A stretch of 64,000 bases of DNA. It comes from an uncultured delta proteobacterium. GTDB taxonomy: Bacteria > Desulfobacterota > Binatia > Binatales > Binataceae. The translations under genes and the position numbers were made by a program. Of the stretch, positions 43,701 to 60,507 are shown in pieces (position 1 is the first letter of the stretch; each line of letters begins with the position of its first letter). The notes under the pieces are model-generated. The model did not search any database and was not told where the DNA came from. It was given only the letters and a program-made list of their open reading frames with translations. The stretch lies in the NCBI GenBank assembly GCA_963808235.1, contig CAWEEQ010000004.1, forward strand, positions 2,176,001 to 2,240,000. The letters are read 5' to 3'.

Positions 43701-43887
43701 GGGAGTCGGCTCTGAGTTGCGCCGCCCGCTCGGAATCGCAATCGTCGGCGGCCTGCTGATAAGCCAGGTGCTCACGCTATACACCACGCCGGTGATTTTC
43801 CTGACCTTCGACCGGATGGCGGCGCGATTTGCCAAATGGCGCGCAAAGGACGTTGTTCCGGAGACCGCTCCGGCTCGTGCGTTATGA
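40771..43887 (+). CDS. mdtB: RND multidrug efflux permease, MdtB/MuxB
   Basis: [48 protein letters not shown] and [15 protein letters not shown] motifs. Confidence 0.95.
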
Positions 43888-46800
43888 GTATCTCCGAAGT
43901 TTTCATAAGGAAGCCCGTCGCCACCACGCTGCTGACTATCGCGCTGGCACTGGCGGGCGCGATCGCGTTCCGGTTGCTCCCGGTTTCGCCGTTGCCGCAG
44001 GTCGAGTTTCCGACTATCCAGGTCCAGGCGTCGTTGCCCGGGGCGAGTCCGGAGACGATGGCCTCGTCGGTGGCGACTCCGCTCGAGCGCCAGTTCGGCC
44101 GTATCGCCGGTCTGACGGAACTGACTTCGACCAGCTACCTGGGCGCCACCTCGATCGTTTTGCAGTTCGATCTGGACCGCGATATCAACGCCGCCGCACG
44201 CGACGTTCAGGCCGCGATCAATGCCGCGGCGGGGCAACTGCCGAGCACCCTGCCGAGCAAGCCACTTTACCGAAAAGTCAATCCCGCCGATGCGCCGATC
44301 CTGATTCTCGCGCTCACCTCGGACACCATCCGCCCGGGACAGATGTACGACGCGGCGGATTCAATCCTCGAGCAGAAGCTCTCGCAAATAGACGGCGTCG
44401 GCCAGGTAACCGTGGGCGGGAGCGCGCTGCCCGGCGTCCGGGTCGAATTGAATCCAACCCAAATGAGCAACCTCGGCATCGGTCTCGACACGGTGCGAAC
44501 TGCCCTGAACACGGCCAATGCGAACCGGCCCAAGGGCGAACTTGCCGACGACACTCAGACATGGGGGTTGAGCACGACCGATCAGCTGCTCAAGGCCGAG
44601 GACTACCAGCCCCTGATCGTTCGCTACAATCAAGGCGCCGCGGTTCGGCTTTCAGATATCGCCACGGTGCGAGACTCGGTCGAGAACGTTCGCGCGGCGG
44701 GGATGGTCGATGGCAAGGTCGCCGTTTTGATCATCGTTTTCCGCCAGCCGGGCGCAAACATCATAGACACGGTCGATCGGGTCAGCGCCGCGCTGCCGCA
44801 ACTGCGCGCCTCGATCTCGCCCGCGATCAAACTCAGTGTGGTAATGGATCGCACCACGACCATCCGGGCCTCGGTGCACGACGTCGAGTTCACGATGTGC
44901 ATCTCGATCGCACTGGTGATCATGGTGGTGTTCGTGTTCCTGCGTAACCTGCGTTCCACCTTGATTCCCGGAGTCGTGGTTCCGCTCTCTCTGATCGGAA
45001 CCTTCGGCATCATGTACCTGCTCGGTTACAGCCTCGACAACCTGTCGCTGATGGCGCTGACGATTTGCACGGGCTTTGTGGTTGACGATGCCATCGTCGT
45101 CATCGAGAACATTTCGCGCTACCGGGAACAGGGGATGCCGCCGTTCGAAGCGGCGATCAAGGGCGCCGCCGGGATCGGCTTCACGGTCATATCGATCAGC
45201 ATCTCGCTGGTGGCGGTCTTTATCCCGATTTTGCTGATGGGCGGAATCGTCGGGCGGCTGTTCCGCGAGTTCGCGGTAACCCTGTCGGCCGCAGTCCTCG
45301 TCTCGTTGGTCATTTCGCTTACTACGACGCCGATGATGAGCGCGCACCTGCTCAAGCCACACGACCAGGAGAACCAGGGCCGCTGGTACCTTAAGAGCGA
45401 GCGCTTTTTCAAGGGGATGCTTGACCGCTACGAAAGCAGCCTGTTGTGGGTTCTGGACCATCAGCCGCTTACTCTGATGGTATTTTTCGCGACGCTCGGG
45501 CTCAGCATTTTTCTGTTCGAGTTCGTGCCCAAGGGATTCTTTCCACAGCAGGACACCGGGCGCCTGATGGGCGCCGTGCAGGCCGACCAGGACACTTCGT
45601 TCCAGGCAATGAAGGATCGGCTTACACAGCTGGTCGCGGTCATCCACAAAGACCCGGCCGTGGACAACGTGATCGCATTCACCGGCGGCAATGGCGCGAC
45701 CAATACCGCGAACATGTTCATCGGGCTGAAGCCGCTCGGCGAGCGAAAGATCAACGCCGATCTGGTTATCGGGCGGATCCGCAAAGAGGTCGCTCACGTT
45801 GCCGGCGTAAATCTCTATCTGCAAGCCACGCAGGATTTGCGCATAGGCGGCAGAAGCAGCAACGCGCAATACCAATTCACCCTGCAGTCCGACGACCTCA
45901 ATGAACTCAACGGATGGGCGCCGAAGGTGCTCAAGAAATTGCGCACCCTCCACATGCTTACCGACGTGAGCAGCGATCAGCAGAACAGCGGACTTGAAGC
46001 CAACGTGGTCGTCGATCGCGCCACTGCCGCGCGGCTCGGACTCTCGCAACAGGCAATCGACGATACCCTCTACGACGCGTTTGGACAGCGGCAAGTGTCG
46101 ACGATGTACACGCCGCTGAACCAGTACCATGTGGTGATGGAAGTCTCGCCCGATTTCTGGCAGAACCCAGACTCGCTCGAGCATATCCGGGTGCTCTCCA
46201 CCAACGGCCAGCTGGTGAAGCTCAGCACGTTCACGCACTTTGGGAACGATACGACCGCGCTCGCGGTCAATCACCAGGGGCAATTTCCGTCGGTGACGAT
46301 CTCATTCAACCTCGCGCCGGGCGAGGCTCTGGGCGACGCGGTCAACGCGATTGCGCAGGCTGAGCAACAGATCCACATGCCTGCCGACATCCGTGGGACA
46401 TTCCAGGGAACCGCGCAGGCGTTCCAGGACTCGCTCAAGAACGAAGGGTTCCTAATCGCGTTCGCACTTTTCGCCGTTTACATCGTGCTCGGCATTCTCT
46501 ATGAAAGTTACATCCATCCGATCACGATTCTCTCGACACTGCCCTCGGCCGGGGTCGGTGCGATCCTCGCGCTCTTACTGTTCCACATCGAGCTGAGCGT
46601 GATCGCGCTGATCGGAATCATCCTGCTGATAGGCATCGTGAAGAAAAACGCGATCATGATGATCGACTTTGCGCTCGAGGCTCAACGCGGCGAGGGCAAG
46701 TCGCCGCACGACGCCATCTATTCAGCGTGCGTGCTGCGTTTCCGACCGATCATGATGACGACGATGGCAGCGATGTTGGGCGGATTGCCGCTAGCGCTGG

Positions 46801-46997
46801 GAAACGGCACGGGCTCCGAGATGCGCCGCCCGCTTGGAATCGCGATCGTGGGCGGACTGCTGGTGAGCCAAGTGCTGACGCTGTATACGACGCCGGTGAT
46901 CTACTTGTACATGGACCGGCTGAGCGCGGGATGGTCGAAATTGTGGCGTCGCGCGCTTGGCCGATCGACGCCTGCGCGGGCTGACTCGCGCGCGTGA
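43884..46997 (+). CDS. mdtC: RND multidrug efflux permease, MdtC/MuxC
   Basis: [37 protein letters not shown] and [18 protein letters not shown] overlap with mdtB. Confidence 0.95.
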
Positions 46998-53282: not shown

Positions 53283-53921
53283 TTACGCGAGGTCGCGAAT
53301 TCGTTCGTACCATCGGCCGACGTTGGCGAAGTCTTTGACAATCGAAAAGTTGGGCGGATTGAGTGAGAGAAAATACAGCGGATGGAAAAGCGACGCGTCC
53401 GCCATCGTGAAGCTCGCGCCCAGGAAAAAATCCTTGCCCTTAAGCTGCTCGTCGATCATGCGCAGATAACCACGCACCTGTTCACGCGCAGCCGCCGCAT
53501 GCTCGCGCATCCTGGCGGTCGTCATGCCGATAAGCTTTTCGCGATTCGCTCTCAGCTTCGGGTCGCCCACCGCGTCGAGCAAATCAGGAATCGTCAGCGA
53601 CAACATCGGCATAAAGAAAATGTTGTCGGCCCAGTTGTCGATCATCTCGATGAGTCCGCGCGCGTCGTCGGGAATCACGCGCCGCTCGGGCGCCTTGCGA
53701 TCGAGCCACCTGATAATGTCGGCGGAGTTGTAGACCACGTCGCCGTCCCACTCCAGCACCGGCACGCGGGTCCACGCTCCCTTGGTCACATCGAGCAGGT
53801 TGGTCTTGTCTTCATAGTGGCAGTCGATCGGATTCCACTTGAGATGTTTGTAGGTGAGCACTCGCCGCACCTTCTCGGAAAACGGCGAAATTGGATATTG
53901 ATAGAGATTGATTTCAGCCAT
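53283..53921 (-). CDS. Glutathione S-transferase family protein
   Basis: LYQYPISPFSEKVRRVL, RVPVL, NSADII and FTMADASL. Start at MAEINL. Confidence 0.88.
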   Translation of the reverse strand: MAEINLYQYPISPFSEKVRRVLTYKHLKWNPIDCHYEDKTNLLDVTKGAWTRVPVLEWDGDVVYNSADIIRWLDRKAPERRVIPDDARGLIEMIDNWADNIFFMPMLSLTIPDLLDAVGDPKLRANREKLIGMTTARMREHAAAAREQVRGYLRMIDEQLKGKDFFLGASFTMADASLFHPLYFLSLNPPNFSIVKDFANVGRWYERIRDLA

Positions 53922-54057
53922 TTGGTTTTCTCGTGCTCTCGCGCTCAACCTAGCCGAGACGGCGGCTTTTCTACAAACCGTTCGTTCAGGGCTGAGAGGC
54001 CGCGCATTCGATTTCGCGGGGATCGGTAGTAGAATACCCGCCGGAGAGAAGCGGGAT

Positions 54058-54930
54058 ATGAACCAGAAATTTCGGGCATCGATGCTCATGATTGCGTTGC
54101 TGATCTTCGGGCTGGCTACCGCCGGGTTCGTAAAACCCGCGCTCGCCCACGACGACATGGAAGGGATGGATATGGGTTCGGGCGGCAGCGGTGGCGGCGG
54201 CAGCGATACCGGTGCGATGGGCCAGATGGGATCGCATATGAAGATGGGCGATCACATGACGATGACCGAGACGCGCGCCGCGGTGCCCGCGGATACTCAG
54301 CGCGGCGAAGAGATCATCAAGACGATGCGCGAGAAGCTCTCCAAGTACGAAGACTCCAATGTCGCGATCGCGGACGGCTACGTGCCGTACATGGAATCGG
54401 TGCCACAGGACGTTTACCACTTCGCGAATCGATCGGCGACGGCCGCTGAGTACATGGGCGATTTCGATCTGGCACGACCAGGCTCGCTGCTCTACGAAAA
54501 AAAGACTTTCGGCGGATACAAACTGGTCGGCGCGATGTACGACGCTCCTCCCAACGCCACCCCTGAGCAGCTCGACAAGCTGATCCCGCTCAGCCTCTCG
54601 CACTGGCATGCGCATACGAATATCTGTCTGCCGCGCGGAGTAACTGAAGACGACGTGATGAACGGCCGAATCGGCAACAACATGCGTCCTGATATTTCTT
54701 CCTCGGGTGAGAGAGAATTTGGCACAAGTCGTAGCGGAGGCGCGGCGGCACGCATGCGTCTCGGATATCTGGCTGATCCGCGCTTCGGCTTCACCGGAAC
54801 GATTTCAAACCAGGCGGATTGCGAGGCGGCGGGCGGGAACTTTCACAAGCAGATCTTCGGCTGGATGATCCACGTCTATCCGTTCGCGAGCGAGGACTTG
54901 AAAGTCGCGTTCAGCACCGAAGCGCCTTAG
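54058..54930 (+). CDS. Secreted hypothetical protein with Met/His-rich N-terminus (metal-binding candidate)
   Basis: Signal peptide ending ALA, HDDMEGMDM..MGQMGSHMKMGDHMTM, YHFAN, PGSLLYEK, LVGAMY, WHAHTNIC and WMIHVY. Confidence 0.7.
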   Translation: MNQKFRASMLMIALLIFGLATAGFVKPALAHDDMEGMDMGSGGSGGGGSDTGAMGQMGSHMKMGDHMTMTETRAAVPADTQRGEEIIKTMREKLSKYEDSNVAIADGYVPYMESVPQDVYHFANRSATAAEYMGDFDLARPGSLLYEKKTFGGYKLVGAMYDAPPNATPEQLDKLIPLSLSHWHAHTNICLPRGVTEDDVMNGRIGNNMRPDISSSGEREFGTSRSGGAAARMRLGYLADPRFGFTGTISNQADCEAAGGNFHKQIFGWMIHVYPFASEDLKVAFSTEAP

Positions 54931-54938
54931 CGGCGCGA

Positions 54939-55586
54939 TCAATTCTGCGCCGGTGAGGTGATCCGGTAAGCGCATCGCCGTGCGCCGGCGAGTATGTGAT
55001 CGGTGCGCTCGACCTGCGCTTTGTCGCCAAGCACCGCGCGGAAAAGCGACAGCTCTTCGCGGCACAAGCCCTGGCAGGTCGCGGCCGCCGCGCAGATCGG
55101 ACAATGATTTTCGACCAGCAGCATCGAGCCGTCCGGCATGCGGGTGCATTCGGCCATGTAGCCTTGCTCGCGGCGAATTTCAGCGAGTGCCTGCGCGCGT
55201 TTCGCAATCGAACTTCCAGCCGGCCGCAGCCGCGCCCGATATTCGTCCTTCTGCCGGCGCGTCCGCTCCGCGAGCAACTTGTCCATCCCGGCTTCGCCGA
55301 ACGCGGCACGCACCGCGGCTATCATCTCGACTGTCAGATCGCCGTGCGTATCGGGAAAGCGCCCCGCCGCGGCTTTGGTCAATCTCCAGACTCGAGCCGG
55401 GCGCCCGACTTTGCGGCGCTCGTCGCTGAAATCGACCAGGCCGGCGCCTTTCAGTCTATAAAGATGCTGTCGCACCGCCATCGGGGTGACGCTCAGCCTG
55501 CGCGCGATTTGCGCGGCAGGCAGCGGCCCGCGAGTTTTGAGCTGATAGAGTACCCCTTCCTCCGCCCGTGAATCCTGCTTCATCAT
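54939..55586 (-). CDS. SufR-like (COG2345-type) HTH transcriptional regulator with Cys-rich C-terminus
   Basis: IARRLSVTPMAVRQHL, VGRP..WRLT, FPD, QGYMAE, ENHCPI..CQGLC (Cx12C) and HILAGARRC. Confidence 0.88.
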   Translation of the reverse strand: MMKQDSRAEEGVLYQLKTRGPLPAAQIARRLSVTPMAVRQHLYRLKGAGLVDFSDERRKVGRPARVWRLTKAAAGRFPDTHGDLTVEMIAAVRAAFGEAGMDKLLAERTRRQKDEYRARLRPAGSSIAKRAQALAEIRREQGYMAECTRMPDGSMLLVENHCPICAAAATCQGLCREELSLFRAVLGDKAQVERTDHILAGARRCAYRITSPAQN

Positions 55587-55612
55587 CACGAGCGTAACGA
55601 ACCCTGAACATT

Positions 55613-55656
55613 AGTCAAGTGGGAGCTTGACTTAGTATGTAAAGCGAGTACTTTAC
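55613..55656. promoter_or_regulatory. Two tandem palindromic operators overlapping divergent promoters
   Basis: AGTCAAG-N6-CTTGACT (55613-55632) and GTAAAG-N6-CTTTAC (55639-55656). TTGACT -35 hexamers occur on both strands. Confidence 0.7.
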
Positions 55657-55681
55657 CAATTGTCGGACCACGGAGGACATC

Positions 55682-57448
55682 ATGATGTCAGAATTGGATT
55701 CCGCCACAGAGACTCAGTCCCGTTTTGTCCGCGCCGGATCGCTCGCTCAACTCCCCGAAGGAAAGAGCATGACGGTCACTCTCGAAGGCCACGTGATCGC
55801 TCTCTTCCACACTCCGGAGGGAATCTTCGCGGTGGACAATCGATGTCCTCACATGGGCTTTCCGCTTGATCGCGGCACCGTGAAAGATTGCATCCTGACC
55901 TGCCACTGGCATCACGCGCGCTTCGACCTGCACAGCGGCGGCGCATTCGATCCGTGGGCAGACGACGTGCGGGCGTTCCCGGTGAAGATCGAAGGTGGCA
56001 ACATCTGGATCGATCTTGCGGCGCACGGCGATCTGCGCCGCCATCGAATCGAACGGCTGCGCGACGGCATCGAACGCAACCTCCCGCTCGTGATCGGCAA
56101 GTCAGTGATCGCTCTTCTGGACGACGGCGGCGACGCGCGTGAGTCGTTTCGAATCGGACTCGAATTCGGCACCCGCTATCGGCGTGACGGTTGGGGCGTC
56201 GGTCTCACAATTCTCACCTGCATGATGAATATCCTCGGAAGCTTGAGTCCCGATGATCGTGCGCGGGCGATGTTCCACGGGCTGAGCGCGGTTGCCAACG
56301 ACTCCGACGGCCATCCGCCGCGCTTCGCGATGCGTCCACTGCCGGGCGGCGGCGCGAGCGTCGCGGAAATCAAGCGATGGTTGCGCAGGTTCGTCGAGGT
56401 TCGCGACACCGAGGGCGCCGAGCGATGCATCGTCTCCGCGGTGCGCACCGGTGCGGCATCGAGCGAAGTTGCGGACATGATGTTTGCGGCAGCGACCGAC
56501 CATCGCTATCTCGACGGCGGCCACACGCTCGACTTCACCAACAAAGCGTTCGAAGCGCTCGATCGCGCGGGATGGGAGCTCGCGGAACCGGTCCTCGCAA
56601 GCCTCGCGCGCGGCTACGCGACTGGCGATCGCATGGAAGAAGCCAACTCATGGCGCAATCCGATCGATCTGGTTGCGATCCTCGAGCCCGCCTTCGAAAG
56701 GATTCCAGCCGCTCTTGAAGCGGGTCACCGCGCGAAGCTTGCATGGTCCGATCGCGAGGTACTGGTTCAAACGATTCTCGGCGATGATCCGAACGCGATC
56801 ATTGATGCGATGCTTACCGCTCTCCGCGAAGGCTCTCCGCCATCGGAGCTCGCGGGCGCGGTTGCGTATGCGGCGGCGCTCCGACTCGCGCGCTTTCCAA
56901 TCAGCAACGAGTTTGGCGATTGGGATACGGCCCATCACAGCTTCACGTTTGCCAACGCCGTCCATCAGGCGGTGCGCCGGGTCGCGTCGGTGGAACTGAT
57001 CCGAGGAGTCTTCGACGCCGCGATGACGGTCTATCTCGATCGATTTCTCAACGTGCCCGCCACGAAACTTCCCGAGCCGAACGGTGCGGGCAGGACTGCC
57101 GTACAACAACTGGCCCGGTTGCCGGACTTGCTCGACCGCCAGCAGCAGGTGAACGAGGCGGGCGCGCTGGTCGCGGACTATCTTGGCGGGGGCAACGATC
57201 CGAACGCGCTGCTCGCCACGCTCGGCAACACTTTGCTGCGCGAGGATCGCGACTTCCATACCATCCAGGATATCGAAGCCGCGTTCCGGCAGTACTCGAT
57301 TCTCAAGGGAACCGACGCGGGGCGCCACGTGCTGATCGCGACCACTCGTTACCTTGCCGCGCACGCTCCGACGGTGCGCGCACAAGCGCAGACATATCAG
57401 ATTGCGCTCCGGCTGAATCGTGGCGAGCATGTTTTTGACGAACAGTGA
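55682..57448 (+). CDS. Rieske [2Fe-2S] domain fused to a large His-containing alpha-helical domain
   Basis: NRCPHMG..LTCHWH (CxH/CxxH), and C-terminal motifs FHG, GGHTLDFTNK, AHHSFT and DFHTIQ. RBS GGAGG. Confidence 0.85.
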   Translation: MMSELDSATETQSRFVRAGSLAQLPEGKSMTVTLEGHVIALFHTPEGIFAVDNRCPHMGFPLDRGTVKDCILTCHWHHARFDLHSGGAFDPWADDVRAFPVKIEGGNIWIDLAAHGDLRRHRIERLRDGIERNLPLVIGKSVIALLDDGGDARESFRIGLEFGTRYRRDGWGVGLTILTCMMNILGSLSPDDRARAMFHGLSAVANDSDGHPPRFAMRPLPGGGASVAEIKRWLRRFVEVRDTEGAERCIVSAVRTGAASSEVADMMFAAATDHRYLDGGHTLDFTNKAFEALDRAGWELAEPVLASLARGYATGDRMEEANSWRNPIDLVAILEPAFERIPAALEAGHRAKLAWSDREVLVQTILGDDPNAIIDAMLTALREGSPPSELAGAVAYAAALRLARFPISNEFGDWDTAHHSFTFANAVHQAVRRVASVELIRGVFDAAMTVYLDRFLNVPATKLPEPNGAGRTAVQQLARLPDLLDRQQQVNEAGALVADYLGGGNDPNALLATLGNTLLREDRDFHTIQDIEAAFRQYSILKGTDAGRHVLIATTRYLAAHAPTVRAQAQTYQIALRLNRGEHVFDEQ

Positions 57449-57472
57449 TGCCCAAATCCTCGAGGTGCGGAA

Positions 57473-58534
57473 ATGAAGCCGGCAGATTACTCAGCGCTCG
57501 ATGAAGCGCTAGAAATTATGGCGCCGATGGGACCCGAGCTGAGCAACGGCTTCTCTAATCACGCTCCGATGGCAATCGAAGCTATGTGCGCGATGGGACG
57601 ACGGGACGCCGTGATGCCGTGGTTCGAGCGCTACCGCCGCGGGCTCGTGCCGCGGCCCGCCCGAGTGGCACGCCTCACCGAGGACAATTGGCGCGAAGCC
57701 CTCGGCAACGTCCGCCGCGCAGAGGATTGGTTCGAGTTCTTTCGCAACGAGCTCGAAGACCGCCCATGGCATGAAGTCCTCGACAATTGGGCCGCACGGC
57801 TCGCGCCGGGAATCATGTCGGCCGCGACGCACGGCGTGATTCGCAGCGGGCATGCGACTCGTGCGATGGTGATCGAAGATACTCCCGCGCGTCGTCGCGA
57901 ACTTGCCGACGGACTCGCGTATTGGGCTGCGGATTATCTTCCGCTTCCCGCCGACCGTCATGCGCCAGCTCGCGCGATGCCCTCGCAAGCAATCGCGCGG
58001 GTGCGGATGATTCCGCCCGAAACTCGCGGCGGCAACTTCGGCGCGTTTACCGACGCTCTCGCACAACTCGATGCCTTCGAGCCGTTCAAGCAGACGCTGG
58101 ACGCGGTCGATACTTCCGGCGACGCGTCGGCATTCGTTTCCGATCTGACGGCCACTTTCGCGCGCGTCTTCTTCGCCAACGCTCGCAACGTCTATACGAC
58201 GATCGCTTTCGTTCATGCTGTGACGGGACCGTCCTCGATTCGCCCGATGCTCCCCTACCTAAGGAAAGAGACCGCGCACGCTGCGCTCGCGTACGCATGG
58301 CAAGCCGCCGCCGCGATGTACGCGACCTTTGGCACCAGCGCGGATCTGTCGCGCCTGGCGGAGGCAAAAGTTAGCGATGCCGACGAACTCATGGAGCGTG
58401 CGATCGCTTGCGGCGACGAGCACGCGATTAAGTTCACCGAGGTTTGTATCCGCGAGTATGCGCTGAATCCGGATCCGACGTTTTTCTCGGCCGCAGAGCA
58501 TGCCATCGACATGCTGAGGCGTGGCGGAGGCTGA
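57473..58534 (+). CDS. Questin oxidase family (DUF4243-like) protein
   Basis: FSNHAPM, ATHGVIR, ELADGLAYWA, FVHAVT and DEHAIKF motifs. Confidence 0.8.
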   Translation: MKPADYSALDEALEIMAPMGPELSNGFSNHAPMAIEAMCAMGRRDAVMPWFERYRRGLVPRPARVARLTEDNWREALGNVRRAEDWFEFFRNELEDRPWHEVLDNWAARLAPGIMSAATHGVIRSGHATRAMVIEDTPARRRELADGLAYWAADYLPLPADRHAPARAMPSQAIARVRMIPPETRGGNFGAFTDALAQLDAFEPFKQTLDAVDTSGDASAFVSDLTATFARVFFANARNVYTTIAFVHAVTGPSSIRPMLPYLRKETAHAALAYAWQAAAAMYATFGTSADLSRLAEAKVSDADELMERAIACGDEHAIKFTEVCIREYALNPDPTFFSAAEHAIDMLRRGGG

Positions 58535-58537
58535 CGT

Positions 58538-59218
58538 TTACTTGGTGCCCGAGTACACGGCGAACATCAGGTTCTTGTACGCGCAGACGATTTCGCGGAA
58601 GCCCGCCGCGGCGAGCCACTCGAGCTGATCTTCGAGCGTCGCCGCACGATCGAACTTCATCCGCTCGATCGCAGACGCAAGATCGCGCTCGCTCACGCCC
58701 AATTCACGCACCCGCGTCAGCCATCGCTCGTGATTGAACCGATCGAGTTCCGCAGTCGCGCCGCGAAACTGCTCCGCGTTGACGAACACGCCACCGTCTT
58801 TCAGCGCGCCATGAATTTGACCGAACAGGTCCCGCTTTTGGTCGTCGCTCAAGTGATGAATCGACAACGCCGACACGACCGCGTCATACTTGTTGTTGAT
58901 TCGGGCCGTGCCGTAGTCGCTGACCTCAAACTGAAACCGCTCACCGCCGAGCTCGAAGCGCTCGCGCGCCCGATCGAGCATCTCGTTCGATATATCGACC
59001 ATCGTGATGCGCGCCCGCGGAAAGCTGTAAGCGACAAACGCCGCGAGCAGGCCGGTGCCCGCGCCGAGATCGAGAACTTCTATCTCGCTGTCGCGCGGAA
59101 ACCGGAGCAGATCGATCGCCGCGCGGTAAAAATCGTCGAACCCGGGCACCAGGCGGCGTCGCGTGCGGTCGTAATCCTCCGCCGCCAAATCGAACGCGCG
59201 CTGTACCGTATTTCCCAT
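58538..59218 (-). CDS. Class I SAM-dependent methyltransferase
   Basis: YDRTRRRLVP, VLDLGAGTG, VVSALSIHHL and GGVFVNAEQ motifs. Confidence 0.9.
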   Translation of the reverse strand: MGNTVQRAFDLAAEDYDRTRRRLVPGFDDFYRAAIDLLRFPRDSEIEVLDLGAGTGLLAAFVAYSFPRARITMVDISNEMLDRARERFELGGERFQFEVSDYGTARINNKYDAVVSALSIHHLSDDQKRDLFGQIHGALKDGGVFVNAEQFRGATAELDRFNHERWLTRVRELGVSERDLASAIERMKFDRAATLEDQLEWLAAAGFREIVCAYKNLMFAVYSGTK

Positions 59219-59409
59219 CCGAAGATTGTGCTGATGCGCGCATCGTGAATCAACCTTTTTCACGCGCGGCGAGAGCGTTTTGCGATGCAATTAACGATCG
59301 GTAACGTTGTAAACTCAAGCTTCGTCTAGTAAATAGAAACTCGAACAGAATCGTAATTCCCGGTCAGGATTTCGCGACGCCAAGCGAAGCCAATCGAGGT
59401 TCAAAAGCG

Positions 59410-60507
59410 ATGCAAAAGCCAATTATCTCCGCCGACTCTCATATCACCGAACCGCCCGGCACCTACGTGGACCGGATCGACGCCAAGTACAAAGACACTG
59501 CGCCGCACATGATTCACGACGAGAAGCTCGGCGATGTTTTTCTGGTTAAGGATTTCCCGCGCCCGATTAACGTCGCGTTGGCGGCCGCGGCCGGCAAGGA
59601 CGCCAGCGAGCTCAGGACTATCGGTGCAAAGTTCGACGACATGCATCGCGGCGGATGGGATCCGAACGCGCGCATGGCGGACCAGGATCGCGACGGCGTC
59701 GCCGCCGAGATCATCTACCCAACGGTCGGGATGATCCTCTGCAACCATCGTGACTTCGATTACAAGAAGGCCTGTTTCGACGCCTACAACCTGTGGATTG
59801 GCGAGTACTGCGCCGCGCATCCCGAACGACTTATCGGCTGCGGACAGACGGCGATGCGCTCGGTCGAAGAAGGTATCGAGGATTTGCGCAAGATGAAGGC
59901 GCTCGGGCTGAAGGGCGTCATGATGCCGGGAAATCCGAAGCTCGAGGACTACGACAACACTATCTACGATCCTTTTTACGAGGCGGCGGTAGATTTGGAA
60001 ATGCCGCTCAGCTTTCACATCCTGACCAGCAGCACCGATAACTTTCAGACTCGCGGCCCCAAGCTGAACAGCTTTCTGTCGATCATCCGCGGATGCCAGG
60101 ACATCATCGGCACCTTCGTGCTCGGCGGAGTTTTCGAGCGGCATCCCAAGCTGAAACTGGTATGCGTCGAAGCCGACGCCGGCTGGGTACCGCACTATAT
60201 GTACCGGATGGATCATGCTTACGATCGGCATCGGTACTGGCTAACGGCTGGTACGCTTTCAAAGATGCCAAGTGAGTATTTCCGCGAGAACGTATACACT
60301 ACCTTCCAGGACGACTACGTAGCATTCAAGGTTAAAGATCTTTGCAATATCCATCGCTTGATGTGGGCGAACGACTTTCCGCATAGCGACTCGACCTGGC
60401 CGTGGTCGCAGGAAATTCTGAGCAAGCAGACCGCGGGGATGACGCAAGACGAGAAGAATTTCGTCCTGCACGACAACGTCGCGGAGCTCTATCATCTGAG
60501 CATCTAG
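59410..60507 (+). CDS. Amidohydrolase family protein (Amidohydro_2)
   Basis: ISADSHITEP, DQDRDGV.AEIIYPT, LSFH, GVFERHPKLK..VE and MWANDFPHSDSTWP motifs. Confidence 0.93.
   Translation: MQKPIISADSHITEPPGTYVDRIDAKYKDTAPHMIHDEKLGDVFLVKDFPRPINVALAAAAGKDASELRTIGAKFDDMHRGGWDPNARMADQDRDGVAAEIIYPTVGMILCNHRDFDYKKACFDAYNLWIGEYCAAHPERLIGCGQTAMRSVEEGIEDLRKMKALGLKGVMMPGNPKLEDYDNTIYDPFYEAAVDLEMPLSFHILTSSTDNFQTRGPKLNSFLSIIRGCQDIIGTFVLGGVFERHPKLKLVCVEADAGWVPHYMYRMDHAYDRHRYWLTAGTLSKMPSEYFRENVYTTFQDDYVAFKVKDLCNIHRLMWANDFPHSDSTWPWSQEILSKQTAGMTQDEKNFVLHDNVAELYHLSI

Follow-up and report, generated by a model that had tools for sequence, protein, structure and literature searches.

Why should a gene for a Rieske protein lie directly upstream of a gene for a relative of the fungal questin oxidases, and do the two products work as one enzyme or as two? 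The question is posed by a 64,000-nt stretch of DNA (hereafter, the window; contig CAWEEQ010000004.1, positions 2,176,001 to 2,240,000) from an uncultured soil bacterium of the family Binataceae, whose genome (G000) spans 4.59 Mb and is 92.95% complete; close homologs carry the source names "Candidatus Binatus" and "Binataceae". The sequencing runs listed for the locus are all of soil DNA, with none of RNA among them. The original prediction, made from the letters of the window, joined the two proteins into a single non-heme iron oxygenase system with the Rieske domain as the source of electrons. The analysis reported here leads to a different reading, to which we assign a probability of about 0.5: the locus encodes two independent iron enzymes of the DUF4243 (questin oxidase) fold that belong to one redox-sensing regulon, and the Rieske domain serves the helical domain to which it is fused. 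The open reading frames (ORFs) of the two genes are exactly where the prediction had them, on the same strand and separated by 24 bp (57449-57472):

55682..57448, + strand: gene 1, encoding a protein of 588 amino acids (aa)
55682..56023, + strand: Rieske [2Fe-2S] domain, residues 1-114 of gene 1 (PF00355/PF13806; ligands C55, H57, C74 and H77)
56024..57448, + strand: all-helical domain of ~470 aa, residues 115-588 of gene 1, with a modeled DUF4243/questin-oxidase fold and without a Pfam assignment
57473..58534, + strand: gene 2, encoding a compact DUF4243/Questin_oxidase protein of 353 aa (PF14027; H30, H120, H248, H317 and K320)

Gene 2 is readily placed. It codes for a genuine DUF4243 enzyme of compact size and adds a bacterial member to a family already known. 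The protein matches the Pfam Questin_oxidase profile PF14027 at an expect value (E) of 3.2e-13 (50.4 bits, cut-off 27), with residues 27-322 covering profile positions 1-337 of 340, and was also recovered by a family search of the whole genome. The SNH, THG, VHA and DEHAIK motifs noticed at the outset are present, and their His and Lys residues do not vary: H30, H120, H127, H248, H317 and K320 are invariant in 18/18 homologs (33-84% identity). Its AlphaFold2 model (predicted local distance difference test score, pLDDT, 90.6; predicted template modeling score, pTM, 0.91) was searched against known structures with the structural aligner VIA-align; BTG13 (7y3w_A; Z 34.2, root-mean-square deviation [rmsd] 2.8, 340 residues aligned) and PaD (8z4q_A; Z 32.8) stand far apart from everything else, with the best match after the DUF4243 structures reaching only Z 6.7. 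Foldseek gives the same answer: six matches at E ≤ 0.001, every one a DUF4243 structure, with E 2.3e-6 for PaD (8z4q) and 7.1e-5 for BTG13 (7y3w). No DUF4243 chain was retrieved from the PDB by sequence search, whether the query was gene 2 itself or one of two profiles, and the gene 2 profile had no PDB match at E ≤ 10. Separately, the region of gene 2 around residues ~166-291 matches C-terminal structures of MgsA/clamp-loader proteins at Z 5-6.

BTG13, GedK and PaD are fungal DUF4243 non-heme iron dioxygenases (PDB 7Y3W and 8Z4Q), and gene 2 is like them in Pfam family, fold and the order of four His and one Lys. For PaD, H63, H166, H317, H394 and K397 are reported as the iron ligands (PMC11371914); compared by order rather than by superposition, the gene 2 residues (30/120/248/317/320) follow in the same order, at a similar spacing and with the same H-x-x-K ending. 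Gene 2 differs from BTG13 and PaD in being ~90-110 residues shorter (353 vs. 440-463 aa), bacterial, and located in no biosynthetic cluster. For the four-His, one-carboxylated-Lys (4-His-1-Kcx) site, a review names no examples but fungal and plant ones and a single bacterial one, OzmD (PMC12173810). OzmD, an enzyme of oxazinomycin/minimycin C-nucleoside biosynthesis, is by the description in that review, like gene 2, a bacterial DUF4243 protein with a 4-His-1-Lys pattern; OzmD differs in belonging to a dedicated antibiotic gene cluster and in acting on a C-glycosylated aminodihydroxypyridine, and no such cluster is found at this locus.

Gene 1 is a composite. Its N-terminal part is the Rieske domain that had been predicted, as judged by Pfam matches (PF00355, E 1.9e-14, residues 18-89; Rieske_2 PF13806, E 3e-12, residues 15-110) and by the cluster ligands, C55-x-H57 and C74-x-x-H77, which are kept in 45/45 aligned homologs having the domain. 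In the AlphaFold2 model, built on 52 homologs (pLDDT 94.0, pTM 0.92), this part is closest to a separate ferredoxin component, that of naphthalene dioxygenase (2qpz_A; Z 19.1, rmsd 1.3, 102 aligned, 31% identity), and not to the oxygenase alpha subunits, which match at Z 14-15.5 and cover the Rieske part alone (model residues ~8-116). Ferredoxin-type Rieske domains carry electrons to catalytic metal sites. A PDB sequence search with gene 1 found Rieske proteins only. Does this make gene 1 a conventional Rieske oxygenase? Like the alpha subunits of naphthalene, carbazole and phthalate dioxygenases, it combines an N-terminal Rieske domain with a second domain in which a mononuclear iron may be bound, so that a Rieske cluster feeding a catalytic iron would be the logic of both. 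Unlike in these Rieske non-heme iron oxygenases, in which the second domain is an alpha/beta helix-grip with a 2-His-1-carboxylate triad, the C-terminal domain of gene 1 is all-helical, with a modeled DUF4243 fold, and the Pfam ring-hydroxylating catalytic domain is absent from 52/52 members of the gene 1 family.

If it is not a helix-grip domain, then what is the C-terminal part of gene 1? Residues 115-588 match nothing in Pfam or NCBIfam. The model places 23 helices in residues 118-579, bearing out the helical nature ascribed to this region, and the VIA-align search against 48,161 chains, in which the domain was queried inside the 588-residue model, aligned residues 150-568 with positions 26-423 of the BTG13 chain 7y3w_A (Z 17.4, rmsd 4.2, 325/440 aligned) and matched PaD 8z4q_A at Z 14.2 with 325 residues aligned. 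In a second comparison, all six DUF4243 entries listed (7y3w, 7y3x, 7y3y, 8yxs, 8z4q and 8z4r) fall at Z 14.3-17.4 with 325-333 residues aligned to gene 1. They are the sole whole-domain helical matches; the next ones, to C-terminal domains of MgsA and clamp-loader proteins (Z ~11.9), span only ~92-103 residues. The DUF4243 match came from VIA-align alone, whereas Foldseek with the whole gene 1 model gave only Rieske matches among its best 50. We consider it quite probable, short of proof, that the helical domain is related to the DUF4243 proteins BTG13 and PaD at the level of the fold. The fold in common that had been suspected for the two proteins thus stands in the models, as an alignment of each to BTG13 7y3w_A (Z 17.4 for gene 1, 34.2 for gene 2), and this modeled assignment of a Pfam-less domain to the BTG13 fold is the new element of gene 1. 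As an observation in its own right, gene 1 residues 224-319 (~56351-56638) resemble the C-terminal helical domain of MgsA/clamp-loader AAA+ proteins (2r9g_A, Z 11.9, 92 aligned), and Pfam MgsA_C (PF12002) is weakly matched by 5/52 family members (best E 0.023).

Which residues of this domain are under constraint? The original prediction pointed to four His motifs, FHG, GGH..NK, AHH and DFH, spaced like those of gene 2. All four are present, but their conservation, counted in 52 homologs of 31-89% identity, is uneven: H199 of FHG is kept in only 48% of the sequences (H/Q/K at this position) and H418 of AHH in 46%, as opposed to 96% for H281, 98% for K288, 87% for H419 and 96% for H526. A set of acidic and polar positions is also strongly conserved: D284 (96%), E291 (100%), D413 (98%), E521 (100%), D522 (98%), Q529 (at least 90%) and E532 (90%); N287, E319 and E320 are also near-invariant. 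K288 lies seven residues past H281, and the residue three past H526 is Gln529, not Lys. The two aligned members that lack H281, P0318 (V/R/P at the three His positions) and P0323 (Q/R/Q), have also lost H419 and H526, and this joint loss hints at a single site to which all three His belong. Both have D284 replaced as well, and they may be inactive or re-purposed paralogs.

Going by the order of helices in both models, H281, H419 and H526 would sit on the counterparts of the gene 2 helices that bear all of its ligand His but the first, in the same order, and a non-significant BLASTP alignment sets D524-F-H526-T-I-Q529..E532 opposite D315-E-H317-A-I-K320..E323. If H281, H419 and H526 do map to the DUF4243 ligand helices, the Rieske-fused family apparently has a Gln at the position of the carboxylated Lys and lacks the first His. 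With BTG13 and PaD, the domain shares the overall fold (Z 17.4 and 14.2, 325 aligned); it differs from them in showing no detectable sequence similarity, in the apparent Gln for carboxylated Lys, in a first His that is not conserved, in its own conserved set of Asp, Glu, Lys and Arg residues, and in the fused Rieske domain, which is found in no described DUF4243 enzyme. Gene 1 is thus recognized neither by DUF4243 sequence tests nor by the search for a Rieske-oxygenase catalytic domain, yet it resembles both in logic and fold. The best explanation is a large, undescribed branch of the DUF4243 fold with a different conserved constellation and a Rieske fusion. In the literature library that was searched, no paper combines DUF4243 and Rieske.

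How widespread is this branch, and does it travel with a DUF4243 partner? At E ≤ 0.001, a search with the helical domain returned 1,884 clusters, each represented at 50% identity. Most carry an N-terminal extension of ~110 residues, and 335 of the 1,884 reach E ≤ 1e-30. The 80 genomic loci that were fetched, in a search seeded with an 11-sequence alignment, come from Chloroflexota, Cyanobacteria (Nostoc, Scytonema, Komarekiella), Actinobacteria, Armatimonadota, Planctomycetota, Deinococcus, Methylomirabilales, Dormibacteraeota, Acidobacteria and metagenome-assembled genomes (MAGs) of the Binatia type; in 74 of these loci the sequence extends 1.2 kb or more downstream, and in 73 it extends 0.8 kb or more upstream. 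The Rieske and helical parts share one ORF in 79/80 loci, the remaining one being truncated by a contig end. Rieske-less forms probably exist, since the Rieske part is missing from 7/52 aligned proteins (~450-480 aa), several of which begin at the same point near K140, and a protein atlas holds clusters of 462 and 472 aa, with all entries unnamed ("hypothetical protein"). When neighbors were identified by phmmer and profile hidden Markov models, a DUF4243 gene was found in only two of the 80 loci (L007 and L013) and a SufR-like regulator gene in four (L002, L007, L013 and L038), all of the Binatia type. Outside the Binatia-type group there are 75 loci with the fusion, and not one has a DUF4243 neighbor. 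A general conserved partner of the fusion in other phyla was also considered and rejected: the best non-overlapping neighbor cluster occurs in 12/80 loci, and conservation tracks taxonomy. In ten loci of several phyla (L005, L006, L018, L022, L025, L029, L042, L048, L069 and L073), the Rieske fusion has as its neighbor a Response_reg+GerE (LuxR/NarL-type) regulator, in most cases on the upstream side and in the same orientation, and six of the ten also have a GAF-HisKA_3-HATPase kinase, a DosS/DosR-like layout.

Within the family of the window genome, the two genes can be followed through losses of either one. A sample of 151 genomes of this family, itself part of a larger group, was tallied from printed coordinates: a DUF4243 protein is present in 70 and the gene 1 helical domain in 40, with both genes in 31, DUF4243 only in 39, and the Rieske fusion only in nine, all of genus g95, in which the fusion is found in 11/11 genomes and the DUF4243 gene in 2/11. 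When three unpublished genomes (G130, G148 and G185) are excluded, the DUF4243 protein is present in 67/148 and the helical domain in 39/148, with both in 30 and DUF4243 only in 37; nothing else claimed here depends on these three. In the 31 genomes with both, the genes are adjacent with a gap of at most ~66 bp in 22 and with a 430-470-bp spacer in four; they lie on separate contigs in three (G268, G270 and G148); and in the remaining two, the DUF4243 gene has directly upstream only a remnant of 34-41 codons from the 3′ end of the fusion (G219, E 1.4e-9; G196, E 5.9e-9). In a phylum-wide sample, a DUF4243 protein was found in 1/121 genomes, namely that of the window. DUF4243 and/or Rieske genes with in-frame TGA, TAG or TAA codons or split between two frames were seen in G140, G180, G184, G235, G246, G265 and G266, among others; these copies reflect either pseudogene decay or indel errors of long-read MAGs.

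The junctions left behind are informative. Among 20 fetched regions, six same-genus loci lack the Rieske gene while the rest of the syntenic block is intact, and in these the operator/5′ untranslated region (UTR) block (55610-55661) is followed, within tens of nt, by the start of the DUF4243 gene (57482-57497 onward). The distance from one to the other is 35, 54, 58, 78 or 81 nt in the five loci where blastn matched both blocks; in L088, the blastn match to the operator block was only 11 nt long (55610-55620, E 0.16), and the operator is visible in the aligned locus sequences. Traces of the last Rieske codons, judged by eye, are present in L087 and L088. Together with the remnants in G219 and G196, the differing junctions indicate that the Rieske gene was lost, probably more than once, while DUF4243 was kept behind the same control region; the remnants so far contradict a descent of the Rieske-less loci from one ancestor that never had the gene. 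In Binataceae, the two genes are therefore linked but separable, and not an obligatory pair.

This record bears on the two-component oxygenase of the original prediction, in which the DUF4243 protein receives electrons from the Rieske fusion, or has its iron re-reduced by it, the two being obligate partners acting on one substrate. The 24-bp gap, the common strand, the adjacency in 26/31 family genomes with both genes, and the operator that they have in common are what such partners would show; yet the Rieske gene is missing from 39/70 DUF4243-bearing family genomes, including ones with 75-79% identical DUF4243 orthologs at the same syntenic site, the DUF4243 gene is missing from 9/40 Rieske-bearing genomes, and DUF4243 retained the promoter where the Rieske gene was cut out, at junctions that differ between loci. 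In the fungal systems, as we read the literature, the reductase reduces the quinone substrate and not the enzyme, a precedent that also counts against electron delivery to gene 2. The idea of a paired system is weakened by the pair occurring in 0/75 loci outside the Binatia-type group, by the genes often being single in the family, and by the excision of the Rieske gene, and we regard it as quite unlikely. That part of the prediction in which one Rieske domain supplies both proteins is thus not upheld (a DUF4243 neighbor in 2/80 loci; 39 DUF4243-only and nine Rieske-only genomes of 151); outside one bacterial family the genes are rarely neighbors, which is an outcome that the prediction itself had named as refuting. 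A complex prediction for the two proteins scored 0.00, gave no verdict, and is used neither way.

If the two proteins are not partners, what holds their genes together? A likely answer is found in the control region, which comprises the following elements:

54939..55589, − strand: SufR-like (COG2345-type) regulator of 216 aa, divergent, upstream of gene 1; TIGR02702 match
55615..55630, no strand: putative operator palindrome 1, TCAAG-N6-CTTGA (arms conserved, spacer variable)
55640..55655, no strand: putative operator palindrome 2, TAAAG-N6-CTTTA, its center 25 nt from that of palindrome 1

The regulator aligns with TIGR02702 (SufR_cyano) over its full length (205 positions, 4-208 of 208), but its 122 bits do not reach the equivalog cut-off of 178.8; the label "SufR-like" of the original prediction is therefore appropriate. 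It has an N-terminal winged helix-turn-helix (HTH; Pfam HTH_5/MarR matches, residues 13-56), a GRP AT-hook, and a C-terminal Cys-rich sensor domain, and 11/11 orthologs keep its motifs RQH, VGRPA, ENHCPIC, CQGLCR[ED]EL and RRCAY unchanged. According to a recent preprint, SufR-like COG2345 proteins have a winged HTH, a GRP AT-hook, and a [4Fe-4S] cluster bound by three Cys and a Glu three residues past the second Cys (10.64898/2025.12.26.696629). Going by spacing only, equivalents of C179/C192/C220 and E195 of the Mycobacterium tuberculosis protein in that preprint can be proposed for the regulator. SufR and ArnR, COG2345 [4Fe-4S] factors, are like it in the full-length match, the RQH, GRP, Cys and Glu motifs, and the divergent self-adjacent arrangement; SufR differs in that the regulator scores below the equivalog cut-off, has no suf genes next to it, and has as its presumed target a pair of DUF4243-fold genes. 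A genuine suf repressor was considered and rejected: the score falls short (122 < 178.8 bits), and no match to SUFBD_core (PF01458) was found in the genome, which, at 92.95% completeness, implies that suf is not the target of the regulator there. The regulator is the sole match to the SufR family in its own genome.

In each of the 15 examined loci with the regulator, its gene directly adjoins, and is divergent from, either the Rieske gene or DUF4243, and the 92-bp divergent intergenic region (55590-55681) holds both palindromes. Palindrome 1 is exact in 12/15 of these loci, the other three differing by one base (left arm GCAAG or ACAAG), and is conserved whether the Rieske fusion or DUF4243 comes next; palindrome 2 is exact in 10/15. 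In the entire genome, T[CA]AAG-N6-CTT[GT]A occurs 16 times and in tandem only here, and GTAAAG-N6-CTTTAC is unique. A second exact TCAAG-N6-CTTGA, at 45409-45424, has no partner site, lies inside a 1,053-aa ORF (43836-46997, + strand), and was taken as chance. For cyanobacterial and Streptomyces SufR, CAAC-N6-GTTG operators are reported in the same preprint (10.64898/2025.12.26.696629); the operator here is likewise N6-spaced and palindromic and differs by one base per arm. COG2345 members are there proposed to regulate pathways beyond SUF, and this subgroup of regulators might already be among the 326 COG2345 members of its Supplementary DataSet 1. The present case is a new target, not a new type of regulator. 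Among the papers found to mention SufR and Rieske together with a regulon, none was about such a protein, as judged by title and abstract.

Control of the locus by the adjacent regulator, as originally proposed, is thus supported: the link is strengthened by a double palindrome that is conserved before whichever gene is first and is the sole tandem of its kind in the genome, and the regulator would be a dedicated, cluster-dependent repressor of this operon. It could still be argued that the pairing has no functional meaning, the genes being neighbors within a lineage-specific syntenic block and the regulator controlling the first gene only. The entire block is indeed syntenic across the genus, and a scan for promoters and terminators placed no consensus element either between the divergent genes or downstream of gene 2. 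Mere synteny does not explain, however, why DUF4243 lies directly behind the same operator and 5′UTR where the Rieske gene is absent, and the Rieske gene does so where DUF4243 is absent (L002 and L038). That either gene is found in this position when the other is missing means that both have repeatedly been kept under this control region, which makes a meaningless pairing highly improbable.

Several points weigh against the reading of two independent DUF4243-fold enzymes that we prefer. Helical models can attain Z ~14 by arrangement alone, and 17.4 exceeds that, not by much. Sequence comparison does not join gene 1 to DUF4243: the best BLASTP hit against gene 2 has E 0.39, hhalign of the two profiles gives a probability of 0.6% (3% with secondary structure from the models, local and global), and PF14027 matches 0/52 gene 1 family members at E ≤ 10. 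The mapping of H281, H419 and H526 to the DUF4243 ligand helices has helix order and the non-significant alignment as its entire basis. In addition, the genes are adjacent in 26/31 genomes having both, which fits cotranscription and would permit a functional link in genomes with both, and part of the presence and absence calls comes from incomplete MAGs.

Some of these points would equally suit a helical domain that is no oxygenase at all, with gene 1 being a redox sensor or a protein of iron or Fe-S handling or repair, and the likeness to DUF4243 being one of fold only, through old divergence or convergence. Gene 1 has no detectable sequence similarity to DUF4243, seemingly has Gln at the carboxy-Lys position, lacks a conserved first His, and has many invariant Arg, Glu and Asp residues, unlike the DUF4243 site; its residues 224-319 look like the C-terminal domains of MgsA proteins (Z 11.9, 92 aligned); and its neighbors are regulatory, with an Fe-S-type regulator here and a LuxR-type response regulator (10/80) and GAF-HisKA_3 kinase (6/80) in other phyla. 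What makes us consider such a role unlikely is that three near-invariant His vanish together in two degenerate members, that ferredoxin-type Rieske domains generally deliver electrons to catalytic metal sites, and that a colinear whole-domain match to six DUF4243 entries is improbable for an unrelated helical bundle.

How, then, might the locus work if it does encode two independent iron enzymes? The SufR-like repressor, probably with a [4Fe-4S] cluster, would bind the double palindrome, which overlaps the divergent promoter region, and control the two-gene transcription unit; the regulon would most likely respond to redox, oxygen or Fe-S status. Damage to or emptying of the cluster, by O2, reactive oxygen species, nitric oxide (NO) or iron shortage, would then derepress both genes. 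Gene 2 would hold a mononuclear Fe(II) on four His and the (carboxylated) Lys, use O2 directly and need no electron donor; by analogy with PaD, BTG13 and GedK, it would most likely cleave or rearrange a hydroquinone-type aromatic. In gene 1, the Rieske cluster would most likely hand single electrons to the metal or active site of its own helical domain, making the protein a self-contained, electron-consuming enzyme, monooxygenase- or reductase-type, rather than the donor of gene 2. The two would be very distant relatives that work independently. A bolder version of this scheme, which we put forward tentatively and hold to be somewhat doubtful, is that gene 1 founds a new class of Rieske oxygenases, in which the cluster drives a mononuclear iron (H281, H419 and H526, with a second shell of Asp, Glu, Gln and Lys) in an all-alpha DUF4243-type domain, under O2-, NO- or Fe-S-sensing regulators in several phyla, for an oxidation (or reduction) that needs electrons and is linked to redox stress; the canonical DUF4243 neighbor would then be a cousin recruited into the regulon.

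The surroundings of the operon offer a few further hints:

53908..54930, + strand: 340-aa His/Met/Gly-rich ORF with a signal-peptide-like start and the stretch HDDMEGMDMGSGG...MGSHMKMGDHM; no Pfam match
58538..59290, − strand: class I S-adenosylmethionine (SAM)-methyltransferase ORF, convergent with gene 2
59410..60507, + strand: Amidohydro_2 (decarboxylase/hydrolase-type) gene by Pfam, downstream of the methyltransferase

Across the genus, the syntenic block reads alcohol dehydrogenase (ADH), luciferase-like monooxygenase, glutathione S-transferase (GST), His/Met-rich protein, regulator, Rieske fusion (where present), DUF4243, methyltransferase, and amidohydrolase. The 340-aa ORF ends 9 bp from the stop codon of the regulator, keeps its syntenic place upstream of the regulator in the majority of the Binataceae loci inspected, and could encode a periplasmic metal (copper?) binding protein. 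The methyltransferase adjoins the DUF4243 gene in 13/20 fetched Binataceae loci (L082-L089, L091, L093 and L099-L101), with the Amidohydro_2 gene next after it in most of the 13. The methyltransferase and Amidohydro_2 neighbors may hint at a pathway for an aromatic substrate; taken as a whole, the syntenic neighbors (Amidohydro_2, class I methyltransferase, GST, luciferase-like monooxygenase and Zn-ADH) at most suggest aromatic or quinone metabolism.

To our knowledge, DUF4243 enzymes are known almost solely from fungal natural-product pathways. The locus shows a compact bacterial version outside any biosynthetic cluster, behind the putative operator of an Fe-S-type repressor, and offers a clean non-suf candidate target and operator for SufR-like (COG2345) regulators, whose targets beyond suf and nar are little known. 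It also reveals a very large, unnamed bacterial family in which what appears from the models to be a DUF4243 fold, with an altered conserved site, is fused to a Rieske electron-transfer domain. If the fused domain does bind iron, Rieske-driven oxygen chemistry would reach an all-alpha scaffold, and BTG13-type chemistry would gain an in-built supply of electrons.

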